Notes under the pieces: generated by a model
The model's input: the letters and a program-made list of their open reading frames with translations, nothing else
What the model was told of the DNA's origin: nothing
Database searches by the model: none
Program-made: the position numbers and the translations under genes
Assembly: GCF_002854065.1 (NCBI RefSeq)
Contig: NZ_CP024147.1
Direction: 5' to 3' (one strand)
From: Escherichia coli
Lineage (GTDB): Bacteria; Pseudomonadota; Gammaproteobacteria; Enterobacterales; Enterobacteriaceae
Length of the DNA stretch: 64,000 nt
Part shown: positions 6,362 to 42,105 of the stretch, piece by piece
Layout: every line of letters begins with the position of its first letter
How positions within the stretch are numbered: position 1 is the stretch's first letter

Positions 6362-6577
6362 AAATTCCTCACTGGTCAGGTAGACACCTCGGAAGCATTT
6401 AAGCGGTTTTAATTGTTATTATTTGTGATGAAGATCACGTCAGAAAATTGTTACATTACTATGTTACGCATAACGTGATGTGCCTTGTAATTCTTATCAG
6501 CAGAAATAAAAAAACGTGAAATTATTATGCCACCAGGCGTAGTATCGCAGCAGGTAAGATGATTCAGGAGATTTTAA

Positions 6578-7141
6578 ATGGCGGGTGAAAGCTTTATTTT
6601 GATGGGCGTTTCAGGGAGTGGTAAAACATTAATTGGTAGCAAGGTTGCCGCGTTATTATCTGCTAAATTTATTGATGGTGACGATCTTCATCCAGCCAAA
6701 AATATAGATAAAATGTCGCAGGGTATTCCATTATCTGATGAAGATCGACTTCCCTGGCTGGAACGCTTAAATGATGCTTCATACAGTCTTTATAAAAAGA
6801 ATGAAACAGGATTTATTGTCTGTTCATCATTAAAAAAACAGTATCGTGATATTTTACGCAAGGGTAGCCCCCATGTTCATTTCCTCTGGTTAGATGGCGA
6901 CTATGAAACTATTCTCGCGCGAATGCAGCGTCGGGCTGGGCATTTTATGCCGGTAGCGTTACTAAAAAGTCAGTTTGAGGCACTGGAGCGTCCACAAGAA
7001 GATGAACAGGATATTGTGCGCATTGATATCAACCATGATATTGCCAATGTCACTGAACAATGTCGGCAGGCTGTGCTGGCGATACGACAAAACAGAATAT
7101 GTGCGAAAGAGGGCAGCGCCTCAGATCAGCGCTGCGAATGA
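6578..7141 (+). CDS. idnK: Gluconokinase (thermosensitive, GntV)
   Basis: 187 aa; P-loop GVSGSGKT; divergent from idnD across a 216 bp promoter region. Confidence 0.85.
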   Translation: MAGESFILMGVSGSGKTLIGSKVAALLSAKFIDGDDLHPAKNIDKMSQGIPLSDEDRLPWLERLNDASYSLYKKNETGFIVCSSLKKQYRDILRKGSPHVHFLWLDGDYETILARMQRRAGHFMPVALLKSQFEALERPQEDEQDIVRIDINHDIANVTEQCRQAVLAIRQNRICAKEGSASDQRCE

Positions 7142-7144
7142 TTT

Positions 7145-8164
7145 TCAAAAATCGGCTTTCAACACCACGCGGTAACGCGCCTTACCGTCGCGCACATGCT
7201 GGATGGCGTCGTTAATTTTCGACATCGGGAACAATTCGGTAGTCGGCGCAACCTTGCTGCGGGCGGCAAAACGCATCAGCTTACGCAACTCATAAGGCGT
7301 GCCAGTAGCAGAGCCAGAGACACTGCGATCGCCCGCAATTAACGTAAAGGCCGGAACAGACAGCGGCGTGAGAACCGCACCGACCGTATGGAAATTACCG
7401 CCATACGTCAGCGCCTCAAAATAAGGCTGCCAGTCGAGGCTGACGTTCACAGTATTGATAATGAGATCAAACTGCCCCGCCAGAGTTTTCAGTGCCTGCG
7501 GATCGCGGCTATTCACCACTTTATCGGCACCCATCGCCAGTACTTCCTGCTCTTTCGCCGGATTTGAACTAAAGGCTGTCACCTCGCATCCCATTGCGTG
7601 CAGAAGTTTTATAGCGATATGCCCCAGCCCGCCAATACCAATTACCCCAACGCGGCTGGTAGCAGTGATATGGTGCATCAATAGTGGTTTAAAGACCGTG
7701 ATACCGCCGCACAACAGCGGCCCGGCGGACTCGATATCAATATTTTCTGGCAGTGGAATCACCCATTGCCAGTCCGCACGCAACTTCTCGGCAAAGCCAC
7801 CGCGATTCATAATCGTCGGCACCGCACCTTGCTCGCAGTTGATCTGATTACCGCTAATACAGGCGTCGCAGTGACCACAGCTACGCGCCGTCCAGCCAAT
7901 CCCGACACGCTGACCGACCTGCAAACCTTTATCCTGCGCGGCGCTCCCGAGTGCCACCACGCGCCCAATCACCTCATGCCCGGCAACCAGCGGATACTGT
8001 GAAAATCCCCATTCGTTATCGATCATCGACAGATCGGAATGGCAGATCCCGCAGTAATCCACCTGCACTTCAATATCTTGTGGCTTCAGCTCACCGGGAT
8101 CGTACTCATAAACTTCCAGTTCGCCGCCCGCTTCTTTTGCGGCATAGCTTTTTATCATCGACAT
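7145..8164 (-). CDS. ahr: NADPH-dependent aldehyde reductase Ahr (YjgB), zinc-ADH family
   Basis: Zinc-ADH motifs ([15 protein letters not shown]); start placed at the internal Met (MSMIKSYAA) giving 339 aa. Confidence 0.8.
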
Positions 8165-8359
8165 TTTTTGGTCCTTCTCTGGTGTTGTCTGGGAAGTGTA
8201 GAGCATGGCAGGGCGGGGTGCCTGGAGTGTGACAAAGGTTACACATCGCGGTATGCAATGCTGAAAATTTCAGCACTTAGCGAGGTGCGAGCAAGCTGGC
8301 GCTTGCATGGTGGTGCGTGACAGGTATAATTCACAACGTTTTCCGCATACCTCTTCAGT

Positions 8360-8444
8360 GCCGAAGTGGCGAAATCGGTAGACGCAGTTGATTCAAAATC
8401 AACCGTAGAAATACGTGCCGGTTCGAGTCCGGCCTTCGGCACCA
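8360..8444 (+). tRNA. leuX: tRNA-Leu (anticodon CAA)
   Basis: Sequence GCCGAAGTGGCGAAATCGGTAGACGCAGTTGATTCAAAATCAACCGTAGAAATACGTGCCGGTTCGAGTCCGGCCTTCGGCACCA read directly; anticodon loop TTCAAAA; long variable arm. Confidence 0.9.
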
Positions 8445-8458
8445 TCGGAACATTAATA

Positions 8459-8481
8459 GACGTCAACGGACGTCTTTTTTT
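8459..8481 (+). terminator. Rho-independent terminator of leuX
   Basis: Hairpin gacgtc-aacg-gacgtc followed by a run of seven T. Confidence 0.6.
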
Positions 8482-8642
8482 GTGCCTGAAATCCAGTATC
8501 CGCAAGGCTTTCCTCGCTTTTTCACTCAACCTAAGTCAACCTGATTCAATTTACATCAACTTACTGATGCGGGTACAACTGCGGGTATATCGCGGTTCGA
8601 TAATGTTTGTACCCACACAGAACCCTTGAAAGGATACTCATC

Positions 8643-9899
8643 ATGGCTCTGAGTGATGTGAAGGTTCGTTCGGCTAAGCCTGAAGCAAAAGCCTATAAAC
8701 TTACTGATGGTGACGGTTTGGTTTTGCTGGTTCACCCGAATGGCTCAAAATACTGGCGGCTGCGTTATCGTTTTGGCGGTAAGGAGAAGATGCTGGCGCT
8801 TGGGAAATACCCTGAAGTGTCGCTGGCGGATGCCCGGGCACGCCGGGATGAAGCTCGTAAGCTGTTAGCTAATGGCGTCGATCCCAGTGAGAACAAGAAA
8901 GCCGTTAAGGTAGAGCAGGAGCAAGAGGCGATAACGTTTGAATTGGTTGCCAGAGACTGGCACGCCAGCAATCAGAAGTGGTCTGCATCGCATAGAGCTC
9001 GAGTATTGAAAAGCCTCGAAGATAATCTCTTTGCTGCTATCGGTAAGCGGAACATTGCAGAACTGAAAACGCGAGACCTACTTGTACCCATCAAAGCGGT
9101 GGAATCATCCGGGCGACTCGAAGTCGCCGCCCGTTTACAGCAGCGAACTACTGCGATTATGCGCTTTGCCGTTCAGAGCGGCTTAATCGACTATAACCCC
9201 GCACAAGAGATTGCCGGTGCGGTAGCTACGGCGAAAAGACAACATCGTGCTGCTCTGGAACTTAATCGCATTCCTGAATTACTTCACCGCATTGATCACT
9301 ATTCTGGCAGGCCGTTAACTCGACTGGCGGTTGAACTCACTTTGTTGGTTTTCATCCGTTCAAGCGAGCTGCGTTTTGCTCGCTGGTCAGAAGTGGATTT
9401 TGATACTGCCATGTGGACGATTCCAGGGGAGCGTGAACCGCTGGAAGGCGTTAAACATTCTCAGCGTGGTTCAAAGATGCGGACTCCCCATCTTGTTCCT
9501 TTGTCGCGGCAGGCTCTGGCTATTTTGGAAAAGATCAAAAGCATGAATGGGAGCCGTGACCTGATCTTCGTAGGAGATCACGATCCGCGTAAGCCAATGA
9601 GTGAGAATACGCTTAATAAGGCCTTGCGAGTAATGGGCTATGACACGAAAACGGAAGTGTGTGGGCATGGTTTCAGGACGATGGCGTGTAGCTCATTGAT
9701 TGAATCGGGTTTGTGGTCGAGAGATGCGGTGGAAAGGCAGATGAGCCATCAAGAGCGTAGCTCTGTGCGTGCGGCGTATATTCATAAGGCGGAACATTTG
9801 GGAGAACGCAGGTTGATGCTGCAGTGGTGGGCTGATTTTCTTGATGCAAATCGTGAGAAGGCGATGAGTCCATTTGATTTTGCCAAACTTAGGCGGTGA
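8643..9899 (+). CDS. P4-like tyrosine integrase (site-specific recombinase) of the leuX island
   Basis: Lies immediately 3' of the tRNA; N-terminal SAKPEAKAYKLTDGDGL...WRLRYRFGGK motif typical of P4-family integrases; C-terminal HxxR and catalytic Tyr region (HGFRTMA...AAYIH). Confidence 0.85.
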   Translation: MALSDVKVRSAKPEAKAYKLTDGDGLVLLVHPNGSKYWRLRYRFGGKEKMLALGKYPEVSLADARARRDEARKLLANGVDPSENKKAVKVEQEQEAITFELVARDWHASNQKWSASHRARVLKSLEDNLFAAIGKRNIAELKTRDLLVPIKAVESSGRLEVAARLQQRTTAIMRFAVQSGLIDYNPAQEIAGAVATAKRQHRAALELNRIPELLHRIDHYSGRPLTRLAVELTLLVFIRSSELRFARWSEVDFDTAMWTIPGEREPLEGVKHSQRGSKMRTPHLVPLSRQALAILEKIKSMNGSRDLIFVGDHDPRKPMSENTLNKALRVMGYDTKTEVCGHGFRTMACSSLIESGLWSRDAVERQMSHQERSSVRAAYIHKAEHLGERRLMLQWWADFLDANREKAMSPFDFAKLRR

Positions 9900-21637: not shown

Positions 21638-22500
21638 GCTTAGTCAGCCGTTGTCTCCGGGTGTCGCGTGCGCAGTTGCACGTCATTCTCAGACGAACCG
21701 ATGACTGGATGGATGGCCGCCGCAGTCGTCACACTGATGATACGGATGTGCTTCTCCGTATACACCATGTTATCGGAGAGCTGCCCACGTATGGTTATCG
21801 TCGGGTATGGGCGCTGCTTCGCAGACAGGCAGAACTTGATGGTATGCCTGCGATCAATGCCAAACGTGTTTACCGGATCATGCGCCAGAATGCGCTGTTG
21901 CTTGAGCGAAAACCTGCTGTACCGCCATCGAAACGGGCACATACAGGCAGAGTGGCCGTGAAAGAAAGCAATCAGCGATGGTGCTCTGACGGGTTCGAGT
22001 TCTGCTGTGATAACGGAGAGAGACTGCGTGTCACGTTCGCGCTGGACTGCTGTGATCGTGAGGCACTGCACTGGGCGGTCACTACCGGCGGCTTCAACAG
22101 TGAAACAGTACAGGACGTCATGCTGGGAGCGGTGGAACGCCGCTTCGGCAACGATCTTCCGTCGTCTCCAGTGGAGTGGCTGACGGATAATGGTTCATGC
22201 TACCGGGCTAATGAAACACGCCAGTTCGCCCGGATGTTGGGACTTGAACCGAAGAACACGGCGGTGCGGAGTCCGGAGAGTAACGGAATAGCAGAGAGCT
22301 TCGTGAAAACGATAAAGCGTGACTACATCAGTATCATGCCCAAACCAGACGGGTTAACGGCAGCAAAGAACCTTGCAGAGGCGTTCGAGCATTATAACGA
22401 ATGGCATCCGCATAGTGCGCTGGGTTATCGCTCGCCACGGGAATATCTGCGGCAGCGGGCTTGTAATGGGTTAAGTGATAACAGATGTCTGGAAATATAG
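21595..22500 (+). CDS. insD: IS2 transposase OrfB (InsD, DDE integrase domain)
   Basis: 301 aa ORF overlapping insC in the -1 frame; DDE transposase. Confidence 0.9.
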
Positions 22501-24987
22501 GGGCAAATCCACGTCCTTTCGACATAGTCGCCGTTGAAGAGTCGAACATGTGGAGTCCGTGATTCTCTGAGATTTTTACGAAGGCATACTCGATCTGATA
22601 ATCTCTATACTTGTCGATTACCGCACGGACTGCCTGAATCTCTTCCTTATTGAACTTTTTGACTTGTACATGGAAAATTAAGCGAATCGTATCGCCTTTC
22701 TGCCAGTTCATTCGCCTTTGTATTTTTTCTATATTCTCGGCCAGAACAGAGGTTAGAGCGTCGCAGTAAGCTTCCGGTACAACGGCTTTGGACGTACTCG
22801 AGACAATGTAACTACCGTCTCCCGAAAATACGGTGGTGATTCCCATAATGCGCTGATTATGGGCACCACGCTCTTGGACTATATTTGCACTGCCAATACC
22901 GATCACGAGTTCATGGGATAGTGTTGGCGATGATTTGAGTAGCCACGGGACTCCACCCATCTTCGCATAGCAGGCCAGTGACATGTTATTAAGCGAGTAG
23001 CCGAGTGAATAATCAGACTGCGTTAGCAGCTCTATTGTGAAATCCTGTACAGGAACTTGGTGCAAGTAAAATAGGCTTTTACCAAGATAGTAAGGATTAT
23101 CAGCAACTTTGAGTTTTTTAAATGACTGCCGCACCTGTACGAGGGCCAGATCCCAACGTCCTCCTTCATCAGCTTTTTTGCGTATTGCAGCTTCGATGGC
23201 ATTTTTGTATGCATCGACGCTGTCTGTGGATGTTTCGAACACTTCAACACGACTGGTTCCAAGTGCAAATTTACCCTCAAGGCCATTTCTGAAATATTTG
23301 CTATTAGCAATGCCTTTCAGAAGCTTACGGACGAACTGCTCGACTCGCCCTTTGTCATGTTGGGCGCAGATCACGCAGATTGATGGATCGTTCCTATCGA
23401 AGGTACGCTTTGTATAGGGGCCATTTTGTGTAAGACCCTTCTCAGTCCAATCTGCTTCACCGTTATCGTTGAAGACGAACACCGGCTTTTGCATCTGTGC
23501 ACAATCTTTTTGAATATCGGATGGATCCTCAATTTCGATACGCGTTCCATCGAGCAGCGAGATGTTTGTCGCTTGGATATACTTCTTAAGGGCGTCGATG
23601 CGGTCTTTTTTATTCTCGCCTCCGTTGAAAATGGAAACGGACTGCCGAATATGTTCGACAATGGAGTCTTTCTTCGTACCATGCGTATGAAGGATGTAGT
23701 CGTCAAAATTAGCTCGACTAGCTTCGAGATAAACGTCTTTAGCCTCAGCATGAACTGCTTGGCCGTCGGGACGAATGACACTCAGAGTTCTCCCTTCGTG
23801 GCAGCTTTCTACAAACCCTAAAAGTTTTCTAAATCCGTCGTCCTGCTCGGTGACGACGTAGCGACCAATAACATTGAATCCGGTTTTTAGGAAAAACAGG
23901 CAGTTCTCTTTTACTACACGACGTGTTGAGCAATCAATTATAAGACACGGCTGACCTTGGACAGTACGAGTGTCGATTGAATACTTGGCACAAATTTTTA
24001 AGGGATAAGCCTCACCAAGAATTGAGGCTAAAAGATTGTCTTTTGGTTTGGCACTTACCACCTCGATAGGATTGAAGCCGCAAGGAGTTCGACCCAATCC
24101 AGCGAAGTGCTTGAGCAGACCATCTTTAACCAGAGAGCAAAAGGTTCCCAAATTATCCTTTAGTTGCAGTGTCTGCGGTGTACCAGGTTTGGGGAACGTA
24201 CCATCACTCGAAAAAATCTGAATATTGTCACCCTGACGCCGGAAGACGTGCGTCACTTTATGGGAGGAGCGGAGGCTATCTAGAGTCGTCTTGTCGTAGG
24301 GGATCTGGACAAATTTCAACTCCAATTCAGGGATTTTCAGTGGAAACGCATTCAGGACAATCGGCAAGACCCACCCCTTTTGTGTTAGTGAAAAATCCAA
24401 CATACTGCGTCTCGATAATTATTCCCAGTCAGGGATGTGCTGGCACCTGACTGGCGCTCGCTGTGGGTTCCCTCCATCCGACTCTGGAAATAACTGTTTC
24501 AACAATTAATTTTCCTACACTGTAGCGTAAATTTTCTTAAGGCTCCCAAAGCGATTATTTAACTCTTTAAACTAATCTAATGTAAAGACTAGGGAAATGA
24601 TACGAGTGTAGTCTATGTCTTCGCTGTGATGAGGATCTATTCTTCGGTGTACATAGGGGTACTTAAGTTCCGATATAACACTCAACCAGCCTAAATTACA
24701 TCTGCAGGATCTCATGATTAAAATGATCTATGTGGTAGGTCATTAAATGGAGTAACCGGTCTCTCATAGGCAGGCGTAAGCCACCCCTGAGGGGCAGACA
24801 GATGCCATGCAGTTGAATGGTTTAAAGGGTTTGAGAGGGTGATAGTGCTGCGGTTGTCACACTATAGAGTTCTGGCGTAAAAACAGTCAGGCATCTCGGC
24901 ATTTATCAACTCGTCCAACGCTCCTCTGAAATTTGCGGGATCGGTTTAGTTTCAGGTGGGGGCGCTGAGGCCCCCGATTTATCGTAC

Positions 24988-25380
24988 TCAGGATTGTGCG
25001 GTGTAATAGACCAAAGCCAGCTTGTTGCCATCGGGGTCTCTAACATAAGCGCTGTAGAAACCTTCGCCGTAATGCGGGCGCAGGCCAGGTGCTCCCTCGT
25101 CCGTGCCTCCTTGGTTTAAAGCGAGCGCGTGAAGCTGCTGGATATGTTCGGCAGTGCGGGCAATCAGGGCGACCATCACACCATTTCCGGTTGTGGCATC
25201 CTGTTTATCAAAAGGTATGCCGATACCCAGTGCCGTCGTGTTATTACCGTTGAAAACGCCCAGCTACGCGACGTCCTCATTCCTGCCACAATGGGTATAG
25301 CTCTGCATCTCCATGAACGGATAGTCGAATGTGAGGGCATGTGGCTGGTAGTTTGTTTTAAGCATAATGTAAGAAAACAT
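24988..25380 (-). pseudogene. VOC (glyoxalase/bleomycin-resistance) family gene remnant
   Basis: Paralogous to the intact VOC gene at 28022-28414 (same MFSY start, HIQQLHALAL and YVRDPDGNKLA motifs) but interrupted in frame. Confidence 0.5.
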
Positions 25381-25427
25381 GGGCTCTCCTTAATGGATTC
25401 AGGGGGAGTGACTATAATCAGCTCAAA

Positions 25428-25679
25428 TCACTCGTCCGCTTTATGAGCCCAGGCGGGCATTGCCGTCAGATAACGTTTTGCCCGCTTCAATGCTTCTTCC
25501 GGGCCGACTTTTTGCCAGGAATCAAGGAAGCTGGCTAAACCTGATACCGCTTCTTCCCAGGGTTTGAGATTGCCGTTGCTGTCGCTGCAGTACGCACAAT
25601 AGTGATCGCTTGCACTGTGTGCATCGGGTGCCGACATCGGCATTCCGCAAGCCTGACAGAACTGTTCATGTTGTGACAT
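25428..25679 (-). CDS. Small zinc-ribbon protein
   Basis: 83 aa with two CxxC pairs (CQAC...CAYC). Confidence 0.45.
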   Translation of the reverse strand: MSQHEQFCQACGMPMSAPDAHSASDHYCAYCSDSNGNLKPWEEAVSGLASFLDSWQKVGPEEALKRAKRYLTAMPAWAHKADE

Positions 25680-31225: not shown

Positions 31226-31660
31226 TCAGACAGTGAAGCTGATTTCTACAGAGCGGGCACTGCGATCACCCTCACCATGGTAAACAGCTTCGATGTTGTT
31301 ACCGTCCGGATCCAGAACAAAAGCGGCATAGTATCCGGGATGATAGGTTCGTTCGGCAGGTGCGCCGTTATCACGTCCGCCATGATTTAGTGCTGCGTGG
31401 TAAAACGCGTTCACCGATTCACGGTCTGCGGCCTGAAAGGCCAGATGGTGCCGTCCTGTAGGCACTCCGCCAGACTCCGAACTTTTTACTGACGAAATGA
31501 CCAGTTCGTCAGCCCAGATATAATCGTCATCGGTAATAACCATGGGGATCTTAAGTTCCGCCAGAACAGCAGTGTAAAACGCTTTGCTTGCGGCAAAGTC
31601 GTTTACCACGAGCTGGATATGGTCGATAAGTCTGCCACGATGCAGCGTATAGTTATCCAT
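31226..31660 (-). CDS. VOC (glyoxalase) family protein
   Basis: 144 aa, VOC fold motifs (HIQLVVND, VLDPDGNNIE). Confidence 0.7.
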   Translation of the reverse strand: MDNYTLHRGRLIDHIQLVVNDFAASKAFYTAVLAELKIPMVITDDDYIWADELVISSVKSSESGGVPTGRHHLAFQAADRESVNAFYHAALNHGGRDNGAPAERTYHPGYYAAFVLDPDGNNIEAVYHGEGDRSARSVEISFTV

Positions 31661-32629
31661 GGTTCATTTCCTTATTCAGATTCTGTCAGTCAGATCTTTA
31701 CCTGTGAAACTCAACAGAGGCACAACTCTACGTAATGATTGTGTTGTTGGAAAAAAATACATTAAGTTTTGTGCTCTGAACCCGACAGATATCAGAAAAT
31801 CATTCCAGATTTGGTCTTTGTACAGGAACTGCTATTCCGTTATTCGCTTATGACCAGGCTCTCAATTGCCAGTTGTAATATAACGAGCAGGGATGAGATA
31901 AGAGCAAGCCATTTTAAGGGGCGTAGTTTACGTTCAGGTATAGAGAGCGTGTAGAGTATGGCATGACGCTTCATTTTATTGAGTGGCATGCTGCCTCCTG
32001 AAAAAGAGCCGCCTGCACAGGCTGCTACACAATGAAAAAAGAATCATTCCACAAGCAAGGCACTTATGAGCAAGGTTAGTTGCCCTGGTGCTAACATAAC
32101 GGTTAAGGCGGTAAGAACAAGCCACTAGCGGCTAAACGTTTTCCTTCCGAGTTGACAGTTTCCTGCTTGAGAGCTGCTCGTTTGTTAGCCAGAACAGGTT
32201 AACGGATAAAATCAGTATATCCATAATAAATAAATAGTTGTTTAGCATTTATTTAAATAATGCCTTCCGAATAATACGCACTAAAATAATAAACAAGCTA
32301 GGACTATCCAGTACTGCTAATTGATAGGCGCTCATGAAAACTGGAGAGATAATTGCTTCTGATTAGCCATCAATGCAATTACATCCTGGTCTGGGGATTC
32401 CCGGGGGTTAAGTAGCGTGATTAACCATCATAAATATTGATTGAACTCATTTACCTAAAAAGCGCCATTTTGATAGGCTCGACTTAACTCGTTGACCATT
32501 TACAGGATTGTAACGTTGGAAATCTTTTTTTAACCCACTGAAAAGTATCTCTTAAATATTTTTCATACATAAAAATTCATGGTCCGTTCAGTACGGATCC
32601 GATTTTGTATGGGTTAAAAAAGGTACGTT

Positions 32630-33238
32630 ATGAAAGTTACATGGACCGTCACGCCTGTGGGGTATCAGCGCATCGCGAAACGATGCCCTTCATGCAACAT
32701 TAAACGGGACTTCACGCCGTCAGGTGCATTTCGGGTTAATTCACAAAAGAAGGTGCTGGACGTGTGGAGTATCTATAAATGCACACACTGTGATTACACC
32801 TGGAATATCTCCCTGTTTTCGCGTCTGCACGTCAGCAAAATTGACCGCCAGCTTTATCATCGACTAATGACAAACGATGCCGCCACGGTGCAGCACTTTG
32901 CATGTGATATCGCGATGCTGAAGCGGAACAATGCAGAGCTATCGGGTCGGCCTGATTTTCACGTTCAGGAGCGCTGGCCGGTAAGCATCACCGCCCACCA
33001 GCGGGTTCGCGTTAGTGTCAGGATCTCCCGTTCATTTCAGGTAAGTCTGCTGTCGATTTTGAAGCAGCAGCTCATGCTGAGCGCTGGTGAGATTCAGAGA
33101 ATGGTGGAAGCAGGGCATATAAGTGGCGTTACACTGAAGTTGCTTAAATCGAGAAAGCTGAAGGCAGCGGAATATCACTTTCAGCTGACTGCGGAAATGT
33201 TATATGCCCGGCGCAGGATCGTTCTGACGCATCGTTAA
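32630..33238 (+). CDS. Hypothetical protein with N-terminal zinc ribbon
   Basis: 202 aa; CPSC...CTHC pairs; isolated gene after about 900 bp of AT-rich ORF-free DNA. Confidence 0.4.
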   Translation: MKVTWTVTPVGYQRIAKRCPSCNIKRDFTPSGAFRVNSQKKVLDVWSIYKCTHCDYTWNISLFSRLHVSKIDRQLYHRLMTNDAATVQHFACDIAMLKRNNAELSGRPDFHVQERWPVSITAHQRVRVSVRISRSFQVSLLSILKQQLMLSAGEIQRMVEAGHISGVTLKLLKSRKLKAAEYHFQLTAEMLYARRRIVLTHR

Positions 33239-33454
33239 AATATTAAGCTCCCCTGAGGTAATAAACGCCCGTGTGGCAGCGGTTCAACATAATGCCAGAT
33301 AGGCCAGGGATAGGGGAGCTTCAGTTTTTCGGCTTCTGAATTGAGAACTTTAGTGAATGGGGTGATAGAGGATATCGCTTGAATTGTGCCGAGTCTAATG
33401 GTGCTTTAAGGATTGGGATATCGGGAAAGGTGTAGCTTAATTGAATGGGTTGTA

Positions 33455-33733
33455 TCAATGACCGCGTGAATCGGCAATGCGTTGCTGTAACCATAATTCG
33501 ACTTCACTTTTCTTCCAGCGGGAGCACCGGCCCAGCTTAATTGGCTTCGGGAACAGTCCGTCTTTTATCAACTTATAGAACCATTTATCCGTCAGCCCCG
33601 TTAGCTTTGTGATGAAGCGCATATCCACCAGTTGGTCATCAAGCAAAGAAATTTGTTCTGTCATGATGCTGTCTTCCATTGTGGGATTATCCTGAGCTGG
33701 TGGTTGATTGCTCGTTACTACCAGCCCTTCCAC
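33455..33733 (-). CDS. AlpA-family phage/island transcriptional regulator
   Basis: HTH-containing C-terminus (ITKLTGLTDKWFYKLIKDGLFPKPIKLGRCSRWKKSEVELWL); the true start may be the internal Met near 33664. Confidence 0.7.
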   Translation of the reverse strand: MEGLVVTSNQPPAQDNPTMEDSIMTEQISLLDDQLVDMRFITKLTGLTDKWFYKLIKDGLFPKPIKLGRCSRWKKSEVELWLQQRIADSRGH

Positions 33734-33771
33734 ATCAATGGATTGATACGTAAAAAAGTGCAGAACGTGAG

Positions 33772-34350
33772 TTATAGTGAGCGAGGACGCCCCAGTCCGC
33801 TGGGCGGCGGTACCTCACTGGCTCCGTAGTGATAGTGACCGTGCTTTTGCTCTTCTTTGGCAAGGTAGCTGATGATGTAGCGCAGGTTATCGATGGCTTC
33901 GGTATCATCGTAGTTCACCGGCTTATCAATACTGACGTCATAAGTAGGTTTGTATTCGCAGCGGTTGTAATAGCCTTCTCGTTGCGTTATTTCCCGCCAT
34001 ATTGTTCCGACTCTCTCAGCTATTGGGTAGGTAGCCTGGTTAAGGTGCCTGTCGAGATAGAACACGATATGAGCATGGCAGCCGTGGTCTACAGAGCTCT
34101 CCAGTACCCAGAAATACCCTGCCAGATTTGTGTGCTGCAGGGTGCGTTCAACCAGCATGCGTACCTCTCGCTCTGTTTCGTTCCATGAATGACGTTTAAA
34201 GCGCTCTGTACCTTTCTGATAGAACAGGTCGAGTCGGAGTGCCTGTATTTGGGAATATCGGTTCAGTAGCTGATTCAGGTGGTCATTGAGTAGAGACAGT
34301 AGAAACCAGTTCATCGTGTATCTGGGGTTAAATGGGTAAGGTGTATGCAT
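33772..34350 (-). CDS. Inovirus Gp2-family protein (island backbone)
   Basis: Family recognised from the conserved core (HAHIVFYLDRH); start uncertain, the longest ORF extends to 34539. Confidence 0.5.
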   Translation of the reverse strand: MHTPYPFNPRYTMNWFLLSLLNDHLNQLLNRYSQIQALRLDLFYQKGTERFKRHSWNETEREVRMLVERTLQHTNLAGYFWVLESSVDHGCHAHIVFYLDRHLNQATYPIAERVGTIWREITQREGYYNRCEYKPTYDVSIDKPVNYDDTEAIDNLRYIISYLAKEEQKHGHYHYGASEVPPPSGLGRPRSL

Positions 34351-34755
34351 TGATTTATCCTTTGTCAGGTGGAGTACAAAGGATTGGGATGGGATGTAAT
34401 TTTTAAGAGAAGCAGAGATACAGGGAACTGCGTATCCAGGGGAATACAGGCAGGGTTGCTTGTTGGGGAAGGGGCTATGAACAGAGTGGTATAGAAACAG
34501 GGAGTCCCCCTTAATTATACTAAAAACCCAAATGTTCATATCTGCTGTTGAACGATGCTAATGAGGTGAGCACAGGAGGATTGTAGGGTGAAAACAACAG
34601 GAATAATGCAGTAAAATGTCAGGCTTTTATCACAATTAAATCAGTAGGATATCAGTAAAAAATCAGCCATTCCTCAGCCTGTGACCCACCTCCCTCTACC
34701 TAAAAGATGCTCATGCTAATCTGTGTTCAGGAGCCAGAATTAGAGGGAGGAGACG

Positions 34756-35673
34756 ATGTTGCATTACGATATGATCCGCTATGAAATAATGTACCTAAAA
34801 ACGCTGGACAGGCATTTCAATACAGATCACTCGTTACTGTGCAGTACTTATGATAGGCCCGATGATTTTCGACGCTTGATCTCTCAGATACTTGAACGGC
34901 ATTTTCTTGGCGATCAGGACAGAATCAAAATTGCGCGGAAAACACTTAAAGAATGGGCTGACCTGCAACTGATTGATAAAGAATATTTTGATTGTTTCAA
35001 AGGCACACCAAGAGCATCGTGGTTTGCTCACCATTATATTTTTGAATACCCAGTATTACCTGCAGGGTTGAAACTTGGTGGGTTGGGGAATGACGTCGGT
35101 TGTTCAGGTGGTTTTAATTCTCTTTTAATGAACGATAATATCTTCACAAATCTTGATTTCTCTAATTTGAATATCGACCTGGACGATATAGATTGGGACC
35201 TGATAACAAATCCACAGGCCACTGCTTCGAAAAAAACGAAACGCGTTTTCTCCCGATTTTATCTGAACGCGGGAGCAAGTACCGATCTGTACAACCCCAC
35301 TCCGGTAACTGAGCGTGAACTCATCAATGGTGTGATGAGGTACATTGATGAAGCACCATGCTCACTTGGAGATAAGATCACTTATTTCAAAAAACTGCAT
35401 GAGCGCTGGCTTGAGCAATATGATTTTTTTCTAACAGATTTTGACTGGATGTCACGTGATGATGAAACTCAGTTAGTATATCTCTGGGACTATCTCAAAG
35501 GAAAGGGACGAATAGCGAGCTATCTTCGCCCTTATAATACGTCTATGCGTTATGACATGATTATTGCGGCTATGGATGTGTGGAACGCCCAACCTGAAGA
35601 GAAGCTGGAGTTTATTGAGAAGATGAAACATGCCTGGCAGGCAGCGAAATCTTACCGGAAATCTGCTAAATAG
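34756..35673 (+). CDS. Hypothetical protein
   Basis: 305 aa ORF with no recognised motif; reasonable coding length and context. Confidence 0.35.
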   Translation: MLHYDMIRYEIMYLKTLDRHFNTDHSLLCSTYDRPDDFRRLISQILERHFLGDQDRIKIARKTLKEWADLQLIDKEYFDCFKGTPRASWFAHHYIFEYPVLPAGLKLGGLGNDVGCSGGFNSLLMNDNIFTNLDFSNLNIDLDDIDWDLITNPQATASKKTKRVFSRFYLNAGASTDLYNPTPVTERELINGVMRYIDEAPCSLGDKITYFKKLHERWLEQYDFFLTDFDWMSRDDETQLVYLWDYLKGKGRIASYLRPYNTSMRYDMIIAAMDVWNAQPEEKLEFIEKMKHAWQAAKSYRKSAK

Positions 35674-36035
35674 CGTTGTGATCGCAGTGATGTCTTGGTC
35701 TGATTTCTCAATGTAGTCATGAATCTGAGTCGACCCAGGGTCCTCTAACTATCTTTTCCTTGTCCCGTTAGGTACAAGCACATACTGTTAAAGATTAATA
35801 TGGCGGGGTATGGACGTCGGAGCTATGCCTACCTTTTAGATCGTTTGCTTCTGACTCGAAGCTTACAAGCTAGCTGATCTGAAGGTCCACTGTGAGCGAG
35901 GAGCGGACACCACGACTCACCAATAACTTGCTGCCCGCTTACGACCCAAAACCACCTATTGTATGTTAATTAATCTAGCAAACAAATGTTTAGCTTTTTA
36001 TCCGGCGAATGAAGCAAGAGAAATTGAACCCATTG

Positions 36036-36512
36036 CTAAGTATTACTGGGATTATTAAAAGGGATAATACTGGCCAATCCGTCATCTACATCAAGACCAT
36101 AGGCAACTGCTATTTCTGCCACAGAGGTACCACACTTTTTTCGCAGTTTAAAAAGCGCTCGCTCAAGCATAGATACTTGCACAGGATGATCAAATCGGAT
36201 GAACTGAGGGGAGCCAACACTGTCACCGAATTCTTGGCATGCCTTTCTCATTTTCCTTAATTGATTTGCTAAATATGAATCGCTCGGTAAACCTTGTAGG
36301 ATTTTAGTCAATTCAGATCTAATGCTGATAACACTCTGAATGCAATGACTAGTATCCTCCATATCGACAGGATTGAAAAGAACTCGCTTGTCCTCAAGAA
36401 AAATGACGATCTTCTTCGCTTCGTCAGCTTCTATTATTGGAGCATTCCACTGAATCCCGAATATAGGGCAGCTAAGGCCTGTAATATTTTTATAGATTCG
36501 TTCAAATTTCAA
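36036..36512 (-). CDS. Hypothetical protein
   Basis: 158 aa ORF convergent with the preceding gene; no recognised motif. Confidence 0.3.
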   Translation of the reverse strand: MKFERIYKNITGLSCPIFGIQWNAPIIEADEAKKIVIFLEDKRVLFNPVDMEDTSHCIQSVISIRSELTKILQGLPSDSYLANQLRKMRKACQEFGDSVGSPQFIRFDHPVQVSMLERALFKLRKKCGTSVAEIAVAYGLDVDDGLASIIPFNNPSNT

Positions 36513-37085
36513 AACTCACTCCTTTGATGGACACATAACGCCTATACAGTCATGATGAGAAACGGACTCGGTTCGAGTAATCTGTTAGATAGCATCACTC
36601 GTAACTACTGTAAAAATAGTTGCTATCATGCTTATTGTCACTATAAATATTACTTAATGTCAGTCAGTTAAGAACGATTATTATCCCCCACAATATAAAA
36701 TGTGTGTGGGGGCTATTTTTTCCAAGAGGTAGGCTTCATCAAAGATAAACTACATGAGAAGAACGCCTTAACTTGCTCAAATGGATTGTGTTACAACAGT
36801 CTTGGTAACGTTTGCTATTGGCACATAGCGGGTCTTCAACCCAGTTAGCTCGCCCATTCTGTGCAAGTAGTGGACAATGAATGAAAAGATATTGGGTCGG
36901 ATTAACCTTGCGAAGGCCATCTAAGTCTGTGACGAACATTTCTTCAAGCATCTGAGGCCCTCAGCTCGCACCTAGAATTTTAATTTTGATGCATTTTGCC
37001 TTAGCTTGAGCATTGGAATGTGGCCTGATAACCGGTGTTTTCTTTTACTGGCCGTCCACAGACTCGATGACGCATTTATTCCCGA

Positions 37086-38903
37086 CTACCTTAAACCTGC
37101 CCCTCTCATTCGCTCCTCCAGTTCATCCAGAAATGGGGAACGCCCTAGACGCATAGGGCCGTAGCGACCATCAACAAAACCGGAATACAGCATATGCACC
37201 TCGTCCCGTGCGCGGGTCAGCCCCACATAGAAAAGACGTCGGCTTTCACGCAGCTTCTCTGGCGTCTCATTACGCCACGGCAAATTCCCCAGATCTAAGC
37301 CGACCATGATAACCACGTCATATTCGCAACCTTTGGCTGAGTGAAGTGTCAGCAAATTGAGGTGCTCAGGTGAACCGTCACGACCACCTAGGCTCGTGAT
37401 ATCCAACATCGCTAACGCACCGCCTTCGGCAAGTGCTGCAGTCATGCGATCTAGTTGCTCAGCCTGATCAGAAAGCGTTGGTTCAGTTGCCAGCAGGGAA
37501 TCAACGAGACCGTTGCGCAACGACGCGACAAAATCGGATGCAGAATGTTGGTCGGCACGAAGTGCCCAAAGTAGCCTGGTTAACTCCTGCCCCTTACTCC
37601 GGGCGCATGCATCATCCAGCCTTGCCCGATGAAATGCCAGATAACGGTCTATAAGTCCGCGCAGTTGAGGGCGCCCGATACGCCAACCGCCAGCACACCA
37701 TGCTGCGCAATCCTCCACCCAGCTCGTCAAGGCAACTTTGCGATAAGGTGCTGCGGTATCCACACGAATGTAATCAAAACCGCTAGCTGTCACCGCATCG
37801 GCCACAACATCGCCGGCACGGTAGTCCTTGTACAGAATGGCGATATCACCCAGTGTTCGGCCCGGCTTAGCAGCCAACGCAGCAGGAATAATCTGCTCGA
37901 CAGCATAGACAGCCTGATCCCCCAAGCCATCCGGACACAGCTGGAACGCAATGGTTGTCTGGCGGTTTGGGTCGTTTGCGCGATAACCACGAACCTCACC
38001 CAACACCATCTCCGATGCATTCACGATGTCCGCTCCTGATCTATAGTTCAACTGGAGCCGGACTGTTTCAACGTCTCTCCTGCCTGCCAGTTCTAGTAGT
38101 AACGCACCATCGGCACCAGTGAAACCGTAAATAGATTGGTCTGCATCACCCACTGCAAATAAGCGTACGCCTCCCTCGAAAGCCAGACGTTTGACCATAC
38201 GATGGAGTGCCACGCCCAAATCTTGATATTCATCTACCGCAAGGATCGGAAATTTCGCCTGTACTAGGGGCAGAACCCAATCATGCTCAATTATCAGACG
38301 CTGACCAAATATCACCATATCGTCGTAGTCTATCAGCCCTTGCTGCCGCAATGCAGCTTCGTAGGCCTCGGCCCATGCAGCGAGTTCCTCCTCTGTACGC
38401 CAGGCAACGCTGTTGCGATTCAACACCGAACGGCGATGCCGTCCGAGATCAATAGCCTTATAGGGATGGTTTGCGCCAAAGAGACGGTCACCAGATTGTC
38501 GAAGTAACCGTTCGCTCTCGCGCTGAGACGCTACTGACAGCGGAAATGGGATTGGCAGATCGGCCAGTCGCCCATAGGGCATCAACAGATGGCGCAAGCA
38601 GAACCCATGAACGGTTCCAATAAAGAGATTCGGTGCCTCTCTAAGCCCCAGCGCTTCGAGACGACGGGTTAGCTCGCGTGCGCATTCTTGGCTATATGTG
38701 ATACATGCCGCACCACGTGGAGCTTGAACATCCTCAGCTAGGATTCGTGCCAGCTTCAGCACAAGCGTCTTTGTCTTACCACTCCCCGGGCCCGCGAGCA
38801 CCACGCAGTGTCCCTGGGAGTGATACGCGGATAACTGGCCCGGATTCCCGGCCAGCTCGGCAGCCTGAGCTAAGTAGGCTGCACTGACACTACGTGACGG
38901 CAT
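37086..38903 (-). CDS. gajB: UvrD/PcrA-family SF1 helicase, GajB-like
   Basis: Motifs VLAGPGSGKTKTL (Walker A), ILAVDEYQDLG (motif II), AVGDADQSIYGFTGA (motif III); start set at the ATG overlapping the upstream gene by 14 bp. Confidence 0.7.
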   Translation of the reverse strand: MPSRSVSAAYLAQAAELAGNPGQLSAYHSQGHCVVLAGPGSGKTKTLVLKLARILAEDVQAPRGAACITYSQECARELTRRLEALGLREAPNLFIGTVHGFCLRHLLMPYGRLADLPIPFPLSVASQRESERLLRQSGDRLFGANHPYKAIDLGRHRRSVLNRNSVAWRTEEELAAWAEAYEAALRQQGLIDYDDMVIFGQRLIIEHDWVLPLVQAKFPILAVDEYQDLGVALHRMVKRLAFEGGVRLFAVGDADQSIYGFTGADGALLLELAGRRDVETVRLQLNYRSGADIVNASEMVLGEVRGYRANDPNRQTTIAFQLCPDGLGDQAVYAVEQIIPAALAAKPGRTLGDIAILYKDYRAGDVVADAVTASGFDYIRVDTAAPYRKVALTSWVEDCAAWCAGGWRIGRPQLRGLIDRYLAFHRARLDDACARSKGQELTRLLWALRADQHSASDFVASLRNGLVDSLLATEPTLSDQAEQLDRMTAALAEGGALAMLDITSLGGRDGSPEHLNLLTLHSAKGCEYDVVIMVGLDLGNLPWRNETPEKLRESRRLFYVGLTRARDEVHMLYSGFVDGRYGPMRLGRSPFLDELEERMRGAGLR

Positions 38904-40674
38904 CGCAGATATACTCCAGTGCTTCACGAATGTAATCCGGGCATACATCCTCCGACACCGAGGGTGCCAGCGCTTGGGCGAACCGCCCTTTGCCAATTCG
39001 CTCAATCAGTTTCAACAACCGGACATTATCAAGCTGGTCCGTGTCATCCACCCACGCCTGTATCCTGTTCAGAGTAGCTCGTCTAGGAGACAATTCCTGC
39101 TCGATAACCAACTTCATGGCTTCGCCCAGTCCACCGGTAAACAGCTCTGGCTCCAGAGTGGTCTCATTGACGAAGCATCCAAAATCTCCGGCACGTGCAA
39201 TCACCTCCTCGGTAGTCATATCATCATGATCAACATCGCTCTCAAGCACGTCTAAGATATTGATAAATCTCTTACGAACCAGCGGCTCTCCATCCTCCTC
39301 AGGATCGCGGTCTGTCAGAATCACATGTGGAATATTGAGTCCCCGCGGCCCTAGGAGCTTCACATACGGAGTGAAATTTGTTCCACCGATCGAGCACACC
39401 GTGATCCCAAGCATATCTAGGGGAATATTAAGAGCATCAGCGAATGCTGGGACAAGAAAGCGTTCAGCATCCCCTTCCACCAAGATCACCCCACGTGAAA
39501 AGAATATTTCGCCGCGAGTGACATCGATATAGCGCTGCAGATCATCTTCGTCCCGCGGCGTAAACGGTGCGTTTGCCGTTGAAACCGCAATCGTCTTCCC
39601 TCCCTCCGGATCATGGCGCAGCAAAACGATGGATCTGATTGGTGTGACGCTGGCGATATGCGGGGAATGGGTGGTCAGGATCGTTGTCAACGGTGTTCCT
39701 TCATCACCATTGTCTCCGTCAGTCCCTAGGAAATAACGGTAAACCAGGCGCTGTACGTGCGGATGTAGGTGCGCTTCCGGCTCCTCGACTACGAAAAACG
39801 TATGGTCTCGTTCTCCGTCATTAACAAGACGATCAAGTTCGAGGCTTTTTAGGGCAAGAAAAATCAGATTAGCTGTCCCCAGACTGGCATCGCCAATGCC
39901 ACGAATGCCACTATCAAGCAGCAAACGCAGGCTACGTAGCAGCGCATCAACGCGAGTCGGTGCAAGTCCGAGCGATACCGGAACGGCATGTTGCTCACCT
40001 GCGATAGCTATCAACCTTTCGCTAATTCGTTCGGCTGTCGCTGCCACCTCATCATGATCAGCCAGTTCCCGTTGAGCCTCATCAACTTGGGTTTGAATCT
40101 CCTCACGAGTCTCGTCGTCCAGAGATGCGGACAGTTCTTCAATAAGCGGTCTTAAGGGTGAATTACGCCAGCTTGAAAGGTCCTTCTCGGCATCACGCAA
40201 CGCGCCTTGAACATCAATGGGCAACATACGGCGAAAGGCACCACCAATATGCATGTCAGGATCAGCTCCACCGAAGATCACATACTCATAATCTTTTAAC
40301 GATTCAGGAGCTCGATTTAACGCGGTTTTGGGCTGAAAGCGGTAGGTAAGACGGGCCACCATCGGAGGCCCCGGATTTAGGACACAGTCATTCAGATGAG
40401 CCATCAATCGGGGATCGTCAGTGAACTCAGTAAGATCCACTGAAATTTCGATGGTCTCCCCCAGTTTGTCTTCGCCCAATCCATCCCAAAAATGTTCAAA
40501 ACCCAGTTGACGGTCACGCTCAGACAACCCTGGGTCAAGAATCAGCTGCAGGCCGCGAATAAAATTGCTCTTGCCAACCTTGTTTTCACCAACAATAACA
40601 ATACTCTCACCCGTTTCAACATCAACATCGGAGAAGTTGGCGAAATTAATTAACCGGATTCGGGAAATCCGCAT
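38890..40674 (-). CDS. gajA: OLD-family ATPase with C-terminal TOPRIM nuclease domain, GajA-like
   Basis: N-terminal ABC ATPase (IRLINFANF, GENKVGKSN, VVEEPEAHLHP, LTTHSP) and C-terminal TOPRIM (VILVEGDAERFLVPAF). Confidence 0.7.
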   Translation of the reverse strand: MRISRIRLINFANFSDVDVETGESIVIVGENKVGKSNFIRGLQLILDPGLSERDRQLGFEHFWDGLGEDKLGETIEISVDLTEFTDDPRLMAHLNDCVLNPGPPMVARLTYRFQPKTALNRAPESLKDYEYVIFGGADPDMHIGGAFRRMLPIDVQGALRDAEKDLSSWRNSPLRPLIEELSASLDDETREEIQTQVDEAQRELADHDEVAATAERISERLIAIAGEQHAVPVSLGLAPTRVDALLRSLRLLLDSGIRGIGDASLGTANLIFLALKSLELDRLVNDGERDHTFFVVEEPEAHLHPHVQRLVYRYFLGTDGDNGDEGTPLTTILTTHSPHIASVTPIRSIVLLRHDPEGGKTIAVSTANAPFTPRDEDDLQRYIDVTRGEIFFSRGVILVEGDAERFLVPAFADALNIPLDMLGITVCSIGGTNFTPYVKLLGPRGLNIPHVILTDRDPEEDGEPLVRKRFINILDVLESDVDHDDMTTEEVIARAGDFGCFVNETTLEPELFTGGLGEAMKLVIEQELSPRRATLNRIQAWVDDTDQLDNVRLLKLIERIGKGRFAQALAPSVSEDVCPDYIREALEYICDAVT

Positions 40675-41229
40675 TACTGCCTCCCTATCTTTTTAATTAT
40701 CTTCCCAAAATAAGAGTAGAACTCAAACCACAAGAGACTGCCTGGCACGACCAAATTTGCTGAGGGATACGGTTGCGATCAGAACGGTACTTGGTCATTG
40801 CACATTTTTTACTGTTCAAATCTATGCGTCCAACGAAGGTAACAACCTATCGTAACAGAGAGCTAAAACATGCCTATGATCCATCTCACATAGTGGCTGT
40901 TTGTCGTCACAGTCTTACAATGCACTCTGTGCAATGCATTACTCCCATTGGCCGACCAGACCGATGAACTGGCACGGCGGTGTGCTTCACACACTCTAGC
41001 GATACGGCACAATATCAACAGACACTGACTGGCCTCGTCAAAATAGTACAGTACAGACTTAGCACCGTCTGACTTTGGCGCTAAGCGGAGATCTTTCAGT
41101 CTTGGACTGCACAAAGTCCTTTGCGTTAATCTAAAATTCCAAATAATTTCAGACAGATATTATCTCATTGAATCCCCGCCTTCCTGACTGGATCGCGGGG
41201 TTTTTAATTTTTCACGCTGAGACTTCTGT

Positions 41230-42105
41230 ATGAATAAACCTGACGGCCTTCAGGCCTTTGAACAACCGCTTGCGTCGCTTCCGTGCACACTTCGCCAGCT
41301 TATTCTTGAACGTATCCAGAACCTGACCCATTACGAGCCGGTGATTGGAATCATGGGCAAAAGTGGTACAGGTAAATCCTCTCTCTGCAACGAACTTTTC
41401 CGGGGCGAGGTGTCCCCGGTGAGTGACGTGAATGCCTGTACTCGCGACGTGCTGCGTTTCCGGTTACGCAGTGGGCGTCACAGCCTGGTGATTGTTGATT
41501 TACCGGGCGTGGGCGAAAACGGGCAGCGGGATCAAGAATACCGTGCCCTGTACCGTCGAATCCTGCCGGAGCTGGACCTGGTGCTGTGGGTCATTAAGGC
41601 CGATGATCGGGCACTAACCGTGGACGAGCAGTTCTGGCACGGTGTGATGCAAACTTACAGGCAAAAGGTACTGTTCGTGATTAACCAGGCCGACAAAATC
41701 GAACCCTGCCATGAATGGGATACCCTCACCAGCAAACCTTCACCGCACCAACTGGGAAATCTTAAAGCGAAGCAGGCTGCGATTATGGTGATGTTTAAAC
41801 CGCATCATCCGGTCTGTGTGGTGTCAGCCCGCACTGGATGGGGCATTGAGGAGATGGTGGCAGCCATGATGCGCTGTCTGCCTGACCGCGCCACCAGCCC
41901 GGTGGTGACACAACTGCACAGGAAACTCTGCACAGAGCCGGTAAAGTCGCAGGCTCGTGACAGTTTCGGTGAAGCTGTGGGCCGGGTTTTCGATACCGCA
42001 GAATCATCTTCGTTCCTGTCTACATCGCTGAAAACGGTGATTCGTAGCGTGCGTGATGCGGTGGTGTCGGTCGCACGGGCCGTCTGGGACTGGATATTCT
42101 TCTGA
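41230..42105 (+). CDS. YfjP/YkfA-family GTPase (prophage CP4-57-like)
   Basis: G1 motif GKSGTGKSS, DLPG, NQADK. Confidence 0.75.
   Translation: MNKPDGLQAFEQPLASLPCTLRQLILERIQNLTHYEPVIGIMGKSGTGKSSLCNELFRGEVSPVSDVNACTRDVLRFRLRSGRHSLVIVDLPGVGENGQRDQEYRALYRRILPELDLVLWVIKADDRALTVDEQFWHGVMQTYRQKVLFVINQADKIEPCHEWDTLTSKPSPHQLGNLKAKQAAIMVMFKPHHPVCVVSARTGWGIEEMVAAMMRCLPDRATSPVVTQLHRKLCTEPVKSQARDSFGEAVGRVFDTAESSSFLSTSLKTVIRSVRDAVVSVARAVWDWIFF

Follow-up and report, generated by a model that had tools for sequence, protein, structure and literature searches.

Left seam of the cargo slot in a CP4-57-type island of Escherichia coli: a backbone gene, a solo DUF6650 gene and a repeated junction element between them

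Operons that combine a TIR gene with a DUF6650 gene constitute type VI Thoeris, in which the DUF6650 effector, ThsG, responds to 2'cADPR and is predicted by modelling to form a hexameric tube whose ligand pockets carry positive charge (bioRxiv 10.64898/2025.12.03.692087). According to the authors of that study, it is unclear how ThsG without transmembrane (TM) helices could be toxic; TM-less Bacillus DUF6650 effectors defended when they were combined with their TIR, and Thoeris operons with two effectors were also reported (bioRxiv 10.64898/2025.12.03.692087). DefensePredictor counts DUF6650 among domains newly implicated in defence, and a 158-amino-acid (158-aa) E. coli protein of this family, WP_010377994.1, on residues 6–148 of which HHpred places DUF6650, appears in its tables under “predicted novel defence gene” (log-odds of 6.5; PMC13092281). 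The subject of this study is a DUF6650 gene standing alone. It occupies positions 36036–36512 of a 64,000-nucleotide stretch of E. coli DNA (contig NZ_CP024147.1, hereafter the window) and faces a gene for a 305-aa protein across a gap of ~360 bp.

The preliminary description of region 34756–36512, made from its letters alone, presented two convergent open reading frames (ORFs) of 305 and 158 aa separated by ~360 bp devoid of ORFs. This observation is confirmed: the coordinates coincide with two coding sequences of RefSeq, and no ORF of at least 40 aa was found inside the gap. The interpretation given to it is partly supported. Biochemical functions and the recombination role discussed below are what we infer from the registered anatomy of the locus, the distributions of its parts and their family membership. 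The reading that we prefer, and to which a probability of about 0.6 may be given, takes the 305-aa gene as part of the island backbone, the DUF6650 gene as stand-alone or trans-activated anti-phage cargo and the gap as a cassette junction. The DUF6650 protein would then oligomerise, bind a nucleotide-derived signal and arrest the infected cell, serving as anti-phage cargo beside Gabija. The features of the seam and of the slot are as follows.

34756..35673, plus strand: 305-aa gene, ATG start; RefSeq WP_001756917.1, hypothetical protein
35674..35842, no strand: non-coding backbone tail, ~80–90% shared with islands carrying other cargo, with internal indels
35843..35866, plus strand: junction unit A with decayed arms, GTTTGC-TTCTGACTCGAA-GCTTAC
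between units A and B: 18-bp spacer
35885..35908, plus strand: junction unit B, GTCCAC-TGTGAGCGAGGA-GCGGAC
35909..36035, minus strand: 3' non-coding part of the DUF6650 cassette, shared with the copies in the P2 hotspot and in an Edwardsiella prophage, not with other islands
36036..36512, minus strand: DUF6650 gene, 158 aa, TTG start; RefSeq WP_050495415.1, “DUF6650 family protein”
36513..36809, minus strand: upstream region of the DUF6650 gene with promoter-like sites at 36667–36613 and a GC-rich hairpin
36810..36875, plus strand: second composite at the DUF6650/Gabija border, with unit A at 36810–36833 (GTTTGC-TATTGGCACATA-GCGGGT) and a decayed second unit at 36852–36875
37086..40674, minus strand: Gabija cassette, GajB at 37086–38903 (RefSeq) and GajA at 38890–40674
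41067..41090, plus strand: lone unit A at the right edge of the slot, GTCTGA-CTTTGGCGCTAA-GCGGAG

E. coli chromosomes such as NZ_CP178662.1 match the window with 100% identity (megablast against 5426 complete E. coli genomes, the set used in all megablast comparisons below), and region 34756–36512 forms the left seam of the cargo slot in a CP4-57-type integrative island at tRNA-Leu (leuX). When compared by blastn with islands bearing unrelated cargo, homology of the backbone stops at 35907–35912 and restarts at ~41063–41084 (at 41076–41084 in most islands and at 41063 in one); the variable slot therefore spans ~35910–41075. GajA and GajB at this locus were confirmed by PADLOC. Cargo of the same slot in other strains is quite diverse.

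W284: three hypothetical proteins
FDAARGOS_1373: a small AAA ATPase
SE11: a DUF2971 protein and two hypothetical proteins
C51: Gabija only, different from that of the window and without DUF6650
R2: an FRG-domain protein and a 692-aa protein

In CP4-57 of K-12, AbpAB and RnlAB are located between yfjJ and yfjP, while Klebsiella pneumoniae ATCC 13883 carries the DUF6650 and Gabija load with 97.6% identity across 8.7 kb. The slot of Buttiauxella massiliensis is apparently empty: its homologue of the 305-aa gene is followed by ~100 bp with a terminator-like hairpin and then by a gene of YeeP-like GTPase. The sequence AATAATTTCAGAYAGATATTAT together with the hairpin is common to B. massiliensis (~4254–4400 of its locus) and to positions 41140–41230 of the window, just upstream of the GTPase gene. 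One more side observation concerns the DUF2971 protein of the SE11 slot (7553–8281 of that locus), since in Comamonas the gene located directly downstream of DUF6650 (6539–7264) has a weak DUF2971 match (E=0.001); this may be a coincidence or may reflect a recurrent cargo family. The preliminary description had placed both genes in a position where islands often hold accessory defence or anti-defence genes. For the 158-aa gene, lying in the variable slot for defence cargo, this assumption holds, and for the 305-aa gene, which belongs to the backbone and is present whatever the cargo, it does not.

The DUF6650 gene is preceded by a Shine-Dalgarno sequence AAGGAG located 7 nt before its TTG codon, the N-terminus of its product, MKFERIYKNITG, is conserved from residue 1 across 33 homologues, and the gene evolves under purifying selection (dN/dS 0.07–0.35). 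The Pfam family PF20355 (DUF6650) matches residues 9–101 with 61.5 bits against the gathering cut-off of 27 (E=1.1e-16), and phrog_29952 matches the protein across its full length (E=1.5e-96). The earlier impression that neither ORF has recognisable motifs must, therefore, be abandoned for this protein, though it proved right for the 305-aa one, which found nothing in Pfam, NCBIfam, PHROGs or PADLOC. Despite the full-length PHROGs family, tblastn of the phage collection gave no match to the DUF6650 protein, and no TM segment was detected in it. In length, species and domain it corresponds to WP_010377994.1, the status of which is a predicted one only. The clade includes 107 homologues, nearly all of 156–170 aa, with 70–89% identity between Escherichia, Edwardsiella, Aeromonas, Shewanella, Pseudomonas, Achromobacter and Cohaesibacter, and spreads over P2 and lambdoid prophages and islands in several proteobacterial classes. 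Sixteen residues, including R43 and R124, are invariant, and R65 and R89 are nearly so (33 homologues); these arginines are compatible with a hexameric tube having basic pockets, but prove nothing.

Surroundings of the clade members range from the P2 FI/G hotspot (between tail sheath and tail-fibre assembly genes) and the lambdoid early region to an integrase island and the neighbourhood of type II Thoeris. Across nine independent contexts no other shared gene was found within 4 kb (BLASTP, E<1e-5), and because there is no conserved neighbour we consider that, judging from these comparisons, the DUF6650 gene here is a single-gene cassette. Proteins of 211–243 aa encoded downstream of DUF6650 were tried as a partner and rejected, being mutually unrelated and none of them a TIR protein. 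TIR is also absent from the annotation of the entire 64-kb window and was not found at E≤1 in 17 scanned unannotated neighbours of the clade members; distant members (38–44% identity) are likewise TIR-less. Pseudomonas spirodelae is the sole exception, with ThsB_TIR two genes away from the 158-aa DUF6650. The genes run there on the same strand (6001–8821 of that locus) with DUF6650 first, then a gene for a 243-aa protein that has a hydrophobic segment at its N-terminus, then ThsA_Macro and ThsB_TIR; this is possibly a Thoeris operon that includes additional effectors.

The DUF6650 gene of the window shares with type VI Thoeris the PF20355 domain, small size, the absence of a known catalytic domain and defence-gene surroundings on mobile elements. 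It differs in having no adjacent ThsB TIR and, unlike the E. coli type VI effectors, no TM helices, while its clade is tightly conserved (156–170 aa) and moves as one gene without a fixed neighbour. Membership in type VI Thoeris, where the TIR protein ThsB is encoded in the same operon, does not apply here: DUF6650 is flanked by the 305-aa backbone gene and by GajB. A role as a third component of Gabija was rejected as well, given nine contexts without Gabija, the Gabija of C51 without DUF6650 and the junction repeat lying between the two.

Two further details of this gene were noticed. An ORF of 83 aa starting from 36009 runs antisense to it, and its conservation is due only to the overlap with DUF6650. 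Upstream of the gene, a GC hairpin CCCCCACA-N10-TGTGGGGG at 36686–36711 is followed on the plus strand by the T-rich CTATTTTTT (to 36721). The whole element 36686–36721 resembles an intrinsic terminator of the plus strand, yet it stands upstream of a minus-strand gene; the hairpin is common to the Edwardsiella prophage copy and is not present in the P2 copy. It escaped the terminator scan, which allows loops of up to 8 nt, probably on account of its 10-nt loop.

The 305-aa gene has its own Shine-Dalgarno sequence, GGAGGAG, before the ATG and is also under purifying selection (dN/dS 0.18–0.28). Its 27 close homologues (63–93% identity) were found only in Enterobacterales and are all unnamed hypothetical proteins, tblastn of the phage collection gave no match, and the structure-based homology check proposed in the preliminary description returned nothing below E=6 (Foldseek against PDB). 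Exhaustive phmmer search revealed ~100 cluster representatives of 280–330 aa that share the C-terminal 120 residues, with the motif F.WL...DE.Q..WAW.YL...P...Y..I.A.D.W...P..K..F..KMK.AW.QKK.R. Prediction by AF2 (AlphaFold2) on the single sequence was unusable (pLDDT 38), but with an alignment of 83 sequences it reached a pLDDT of 84.6 and a pTM of 0.77 and gave a helical N-domain (1–100), a disordered linker (~108–170) and a helical C-domain (180–305). YfjH, YagM and YagJ of K-12 were considered as homologues and rejected as unrelated.

In the window this gene is the divergent partner of the YagK/YfjJ gene, which is inovirus Gp2-like and Rep-related. Whatever the cargo, it keeps synteny with the YagK_YfjJ_C gene in loci of E. 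coli, Klebsiella, Enterobacter and Citrobacter, and its relatives of ~20% identity (Neptuniibacter and a metagenomic contig) are divergent to a YagK_YfjJ_C gene across an intergenic region of ~480 bp, with AlpA and RadC close by. Because it is present with any cargo and remains syntenic with the Gp2-like gene even at ~20% identity, we conclude from these comparisons that it is a core backbone gene of the island, not cargo, functionally tied to the Gp2/Rep-like protein. The closest described protein is MatP, which consists of an N-terminal helical bundle, RHH and a coiled coil and binds matS. Search of PDB with the family profile gave MatP at E=0.0057, a match of weak statistical support, in which the alignment covers the MatP N-domain and RHH; the C-domain of the family aligns to the MatP N-domain through the W-x-W-x-YL and KMK..AW..K.R motifs. 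Distant relatives run on into RHH in the same way, carrying an extra tail of ~45 residues with a match to RepB-RCR_reg in 5 of 83 and to RHH_1 in 3 of 83 sequences, while the subfamily of the window ends at ...KSYRKSAK, just short of that tail. It differs from MatP by the lack of RHH and coiled coil, by the additional N-terminal helical domain of 100 aa and disordered linker, and by its location in an island in partnership with a Gp2-like gene. The protein may play a DNA-associated accessory, regulatory or architectural role in the island maintenance module, though the obvious DNA-binding RHH has been lost in the subfamily.

What separates the two genes is a gap of 362 bp (35674–36035, 45% GC) with a composite of two units inside. 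The junction unit is 24 bp long, with the structure of about GTCCGC-N12-GCGGAC, and the composite A-B takes ~66 bp. Homology of the backbone ends not more than ~5 bp after unit B in 13 islands. P2 and lambdoid prophages have unit B 3' of their DUF6650 gene as well. Together with the next 125 bp, this unit is shared with DUF6650 copies of one P2 prophage and one Edwardsiella prophage, while the A-B composite recurs in islands that have no DUF6650. Since the side of unit B is common with the DUF6650 copies and A-B is common with DUF6650-less islands, the seam lies in the junction element. Using an nhmmer profile built from ten composites, we registered the composite at 36810–36875 with E=3.8e-7 for the minus and 0.011 for the plus strand. 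The order of the slot in the window is thus [A B] DUF6650 [A B'] Gabija [A], and the cassette has the form B...gene(s)...A. No long repeats flank the slot beyond these short units.

The same element is widespread. About 54 units were found in ~20 loci at cargo borders, and the composite is present in 907 of the 5426 complete E. coli genomes in 1–3 copies each, always in unannotated intergenic DNA. Further copies are found in P2-like phage 899, where the composite sits in the hotspot, as well as near dicB (a prophage-like region), within an island at tRNA-Phe and within a pathogenicity island of CFT073. In the P2 hotspot of E. coli LS4, DUF6650 lies between B (7905) and A-B (8760/8802), and a further unit is found at 9683. 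Arrangement of units in the compared loci is given below.

Islands: A-B, cargo, lone A exactly at the backbone restart
P2 hotspots: sheath, B, cassette, A-B, cassette, A, tail-fibre assembly
Compared locus L040: units at 3535/4970/5012/6716; units also in loci L039, L041, L043 and L044

Centres of the ~54 units are near-invariant (TGGCWC in A and TGAGCGA in B), substitutions in the arms are mostly non-compensatory and gene orientation relative to B→A varies, which argues for a DNA-level site rather than for an RNA hairpin or a directional terminator. Based on this pattern, one can assume that the A/B units most likely act at the DNA level, where they might serve as shared recombination points or as portable short homology arms moving cassettes between P2 hotspots, lambdoid prophages and islands. 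To go one step further, they may be sites of an uncharacterised cassette-exchange route that shuttles single defence genes in the form B...gene...A among P2 hotspots, lambdoid prophages, tRNA islands and pathogenicity islands, but this extension we can offer only as tentative. In this case the units would either be used by a recombinase dedicated to them or provide phage recombinases with universal short arms of homology, and short-homology exchange by phage recombinases reads equally well as the dedicated route. Judging by the title of a paper by Nilsson et al. of 2004 (Mol Biol Evol 21:1), part of the exchange idea may already have been proposed for P2 phages.

CP4-57-type slots and the P2 FI/G (Z/fun) hotspot have, as here, fixed flanking backbone genes and rapidly swapped defence cargo, and the P2 FI/G hotspot and an unrelated island hold the same cargo gene, DUF6650. 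Short imperfect palindromes at cassette borders or in intergenic DNA are known as integron attC sites, REP-BIME elements and end hairpins of IS200-IS605, and the A/B units resemble all of them in this respect; the composite junctions are made of two units. Unlike these elements, however, the A/B units have 6-bp arms and a conserved centre of 12 bp instead of a long stem. Inspection of their sequences revealed no GTTRRRY core of attC, and the annotation of the window contains no integron integrase. Nor are the units linked to any Y1 transposase, and their sequence is unlike the E. coli REP consensus. In published accounts, defence swapping in P2 and P4 is put down to recombination generally, with no mention of border palindromes, hairpins or motifs (Rousset et al. 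2022, PMC9122126; bioRxiv 10.64898/2026.02.27.708500), whereas cargo borders in the window coincide with a specific repeated unit.

Distribution of the two genes and properties of the gap allow several other explanations to be weighed. Megablast finds the 305-aa gene together with the leftmost 235 bp of the gap at ~90% in islands that lack DUF6650 and, in other genomes, the DUF6650 gene at ~90% where the 305-aa gene is absent. As either gene can be found in the absence of the other, the two are, as far as these comparisons tell, independent neighbours and not a functional pair. That they form one two-gene accessory system for defence or anti-defence has almost negligible probability: six E. 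coli genomes and K. pneumoniae ATCC 13883 have them side by side and facing each other, but the 305-aa gene was also found with six other cargo sets and with the empty slot, DUF6650 lacks this neighbour in nine other contexts, and the cassette junction lies between them. In Achromobacter a 305-aa protein is again encoded next to DUF6650, but it is unrelated and the match in length is coincidental. The suggestion that the gap holds a small RNA or terminators also received no support. Convergent genes do need termination, arms of the palindromes could pair in RNA, and the first 235 bp of the gap are conserved among islands; nevertheless, Rfam gave no match at E≤1 in 31500–37500, the terminator scan (hairpin and U-tract) found no site in 35674–36035, folding of the conserved part was no better than that of shuffled sequences on either strand (z of +0.92 and +0.39), and alifold of 11 sequences gave a covariation term of only −0.19 kcal/mol. 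Conservation of the gap is no higher than that of the adjacent coding sequence, and its first ~170 bp tolerate indels of 40–70 bp among islands. Together with better conservation of unit centres than of arms and variable orientation of genes against the units, this makes a small RNA or a bidirectional terminator for the convergent genes very unlikely, and what the gap does hold is the cassette junction.

As for the DUF6650 protein, its role as a signal-binding abortive effector, self-sufficient or activated in trans, is the leading explanation. A narrower version makes it an orphan type VI Thoeris effector, silent alone and triggered in trans by 2'cADPR from a TIR protein whose gene lies elsewhere in the genome or on a different mobile element. 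It would agree with membership in the 2'cADPR-responsive ThsG family, with the existence of Thoeris operons having two effectors (bioRxiv 10.64898/2025.12.03.692087) and with the situation in P. spirodelae, where the 158-aa protein is encoded on the same strand as ThsA_Macro and ThsB_TIR, at a distance of two genes. The TIR searches in the window and in the 17 neighbours, however, point the other way, and a partner-dependent gene is expected to travel with its partner, while DUF6650 has no conserved neighbour; we therefore regard it as rather unlikely. The same small and soluble protein, having neither an effector nor a TM domain, might instead be an anti-defence sponge that, by analogy with Tad1/Tad2, sequesters a TIR-derived signal and blunts the Thoeris of the host. 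Its prophage-borne location, including the lambdoid early region, the hexamer with positively charged pockets modelled for the ThsG family and the unclear toxicity of TM-less ThsG would fit such a role. But the TM-less Bacillus effectors gave defence together with their TIR, DUF6650 occupies slots that hold defence systems (Gabija and the P2 FI/G hotspot) and DefensePredictor rates a 158-aa homologue as defensive, which together leave the sponge quite unlikely.

Several points also weigh against the reading preferred here, in which a backbone gene and DUF6650 cargo meet at a cassette junction. The 158-aa clade lies outside the tested type VI effectors, of which those from E. coli have TM helices and those from Bacillus are distant, and DS-27 “SMEK”, the one “DUF6650” protein of DefensePredictor that was validated by experiment (PMC13092281), has no detectable similarity to this clade (hhalign probability of 0.2%). 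The unit at the right edge (41067–41090), though positioned as predicted, is decayed, with three arm mismatches and an nhmmer E of 0.49. The non-compensatory character of most arm substitutions belongs here too, as does the fact that no recombinase was found linked to the A/B units, and the units could be passive relics.

For the island as a whole, annotation of the identical chromosome gives the following order.

Island start: tRNA-Leu gene, then integrase
Left part: type I restriction-modification, prokaryotic argonaute (pAgo) with nuclease, K-12-like genes
CP4-57-type module, start: DUF1062, AlpA-like HTH, YagK/YfjJ (Gp2-like), 305-aa gene
CP4-57-type module, middle: DUF6650, GajB, GajA, YeeP/YfjP-like GTPase, WYL-HTH
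CP4-57-type module, end: DUF932, antirestriction, RadC, YeeU/CbtA

In the left part, at ~22170–25570, a gene of the argonaute/piwi family (743 aa) overlaps by 13 bp with a gene for a protein with a PD-(D/E)XK nuclease domain. It adjoins a type I restriction-modification system that has an extra AAA ATPase and a hypothetical gene, and all of these belong to the same tRNA-Leu island.

For the DUF6650 family, the solo gene provides a compact test case to distinguish between self-sufficiency of the domain, a signal made in trans and a sponge. The 305-aa family, with its MatP-like domain and Gp2/Rep-like partner, represents an unstudied core part of a very common class of enterobacterial islands. 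The ~24-bp repeat at cargo borders is a concrete and mutable handle on how defence systems hop between hotspots and islands, and can at the same time serve as an easy sequence tag in the search for cargo genes not yet known. If the exchange route assumed above is true, it would constitute an integron-like modular system for enterobacterial defence genes.

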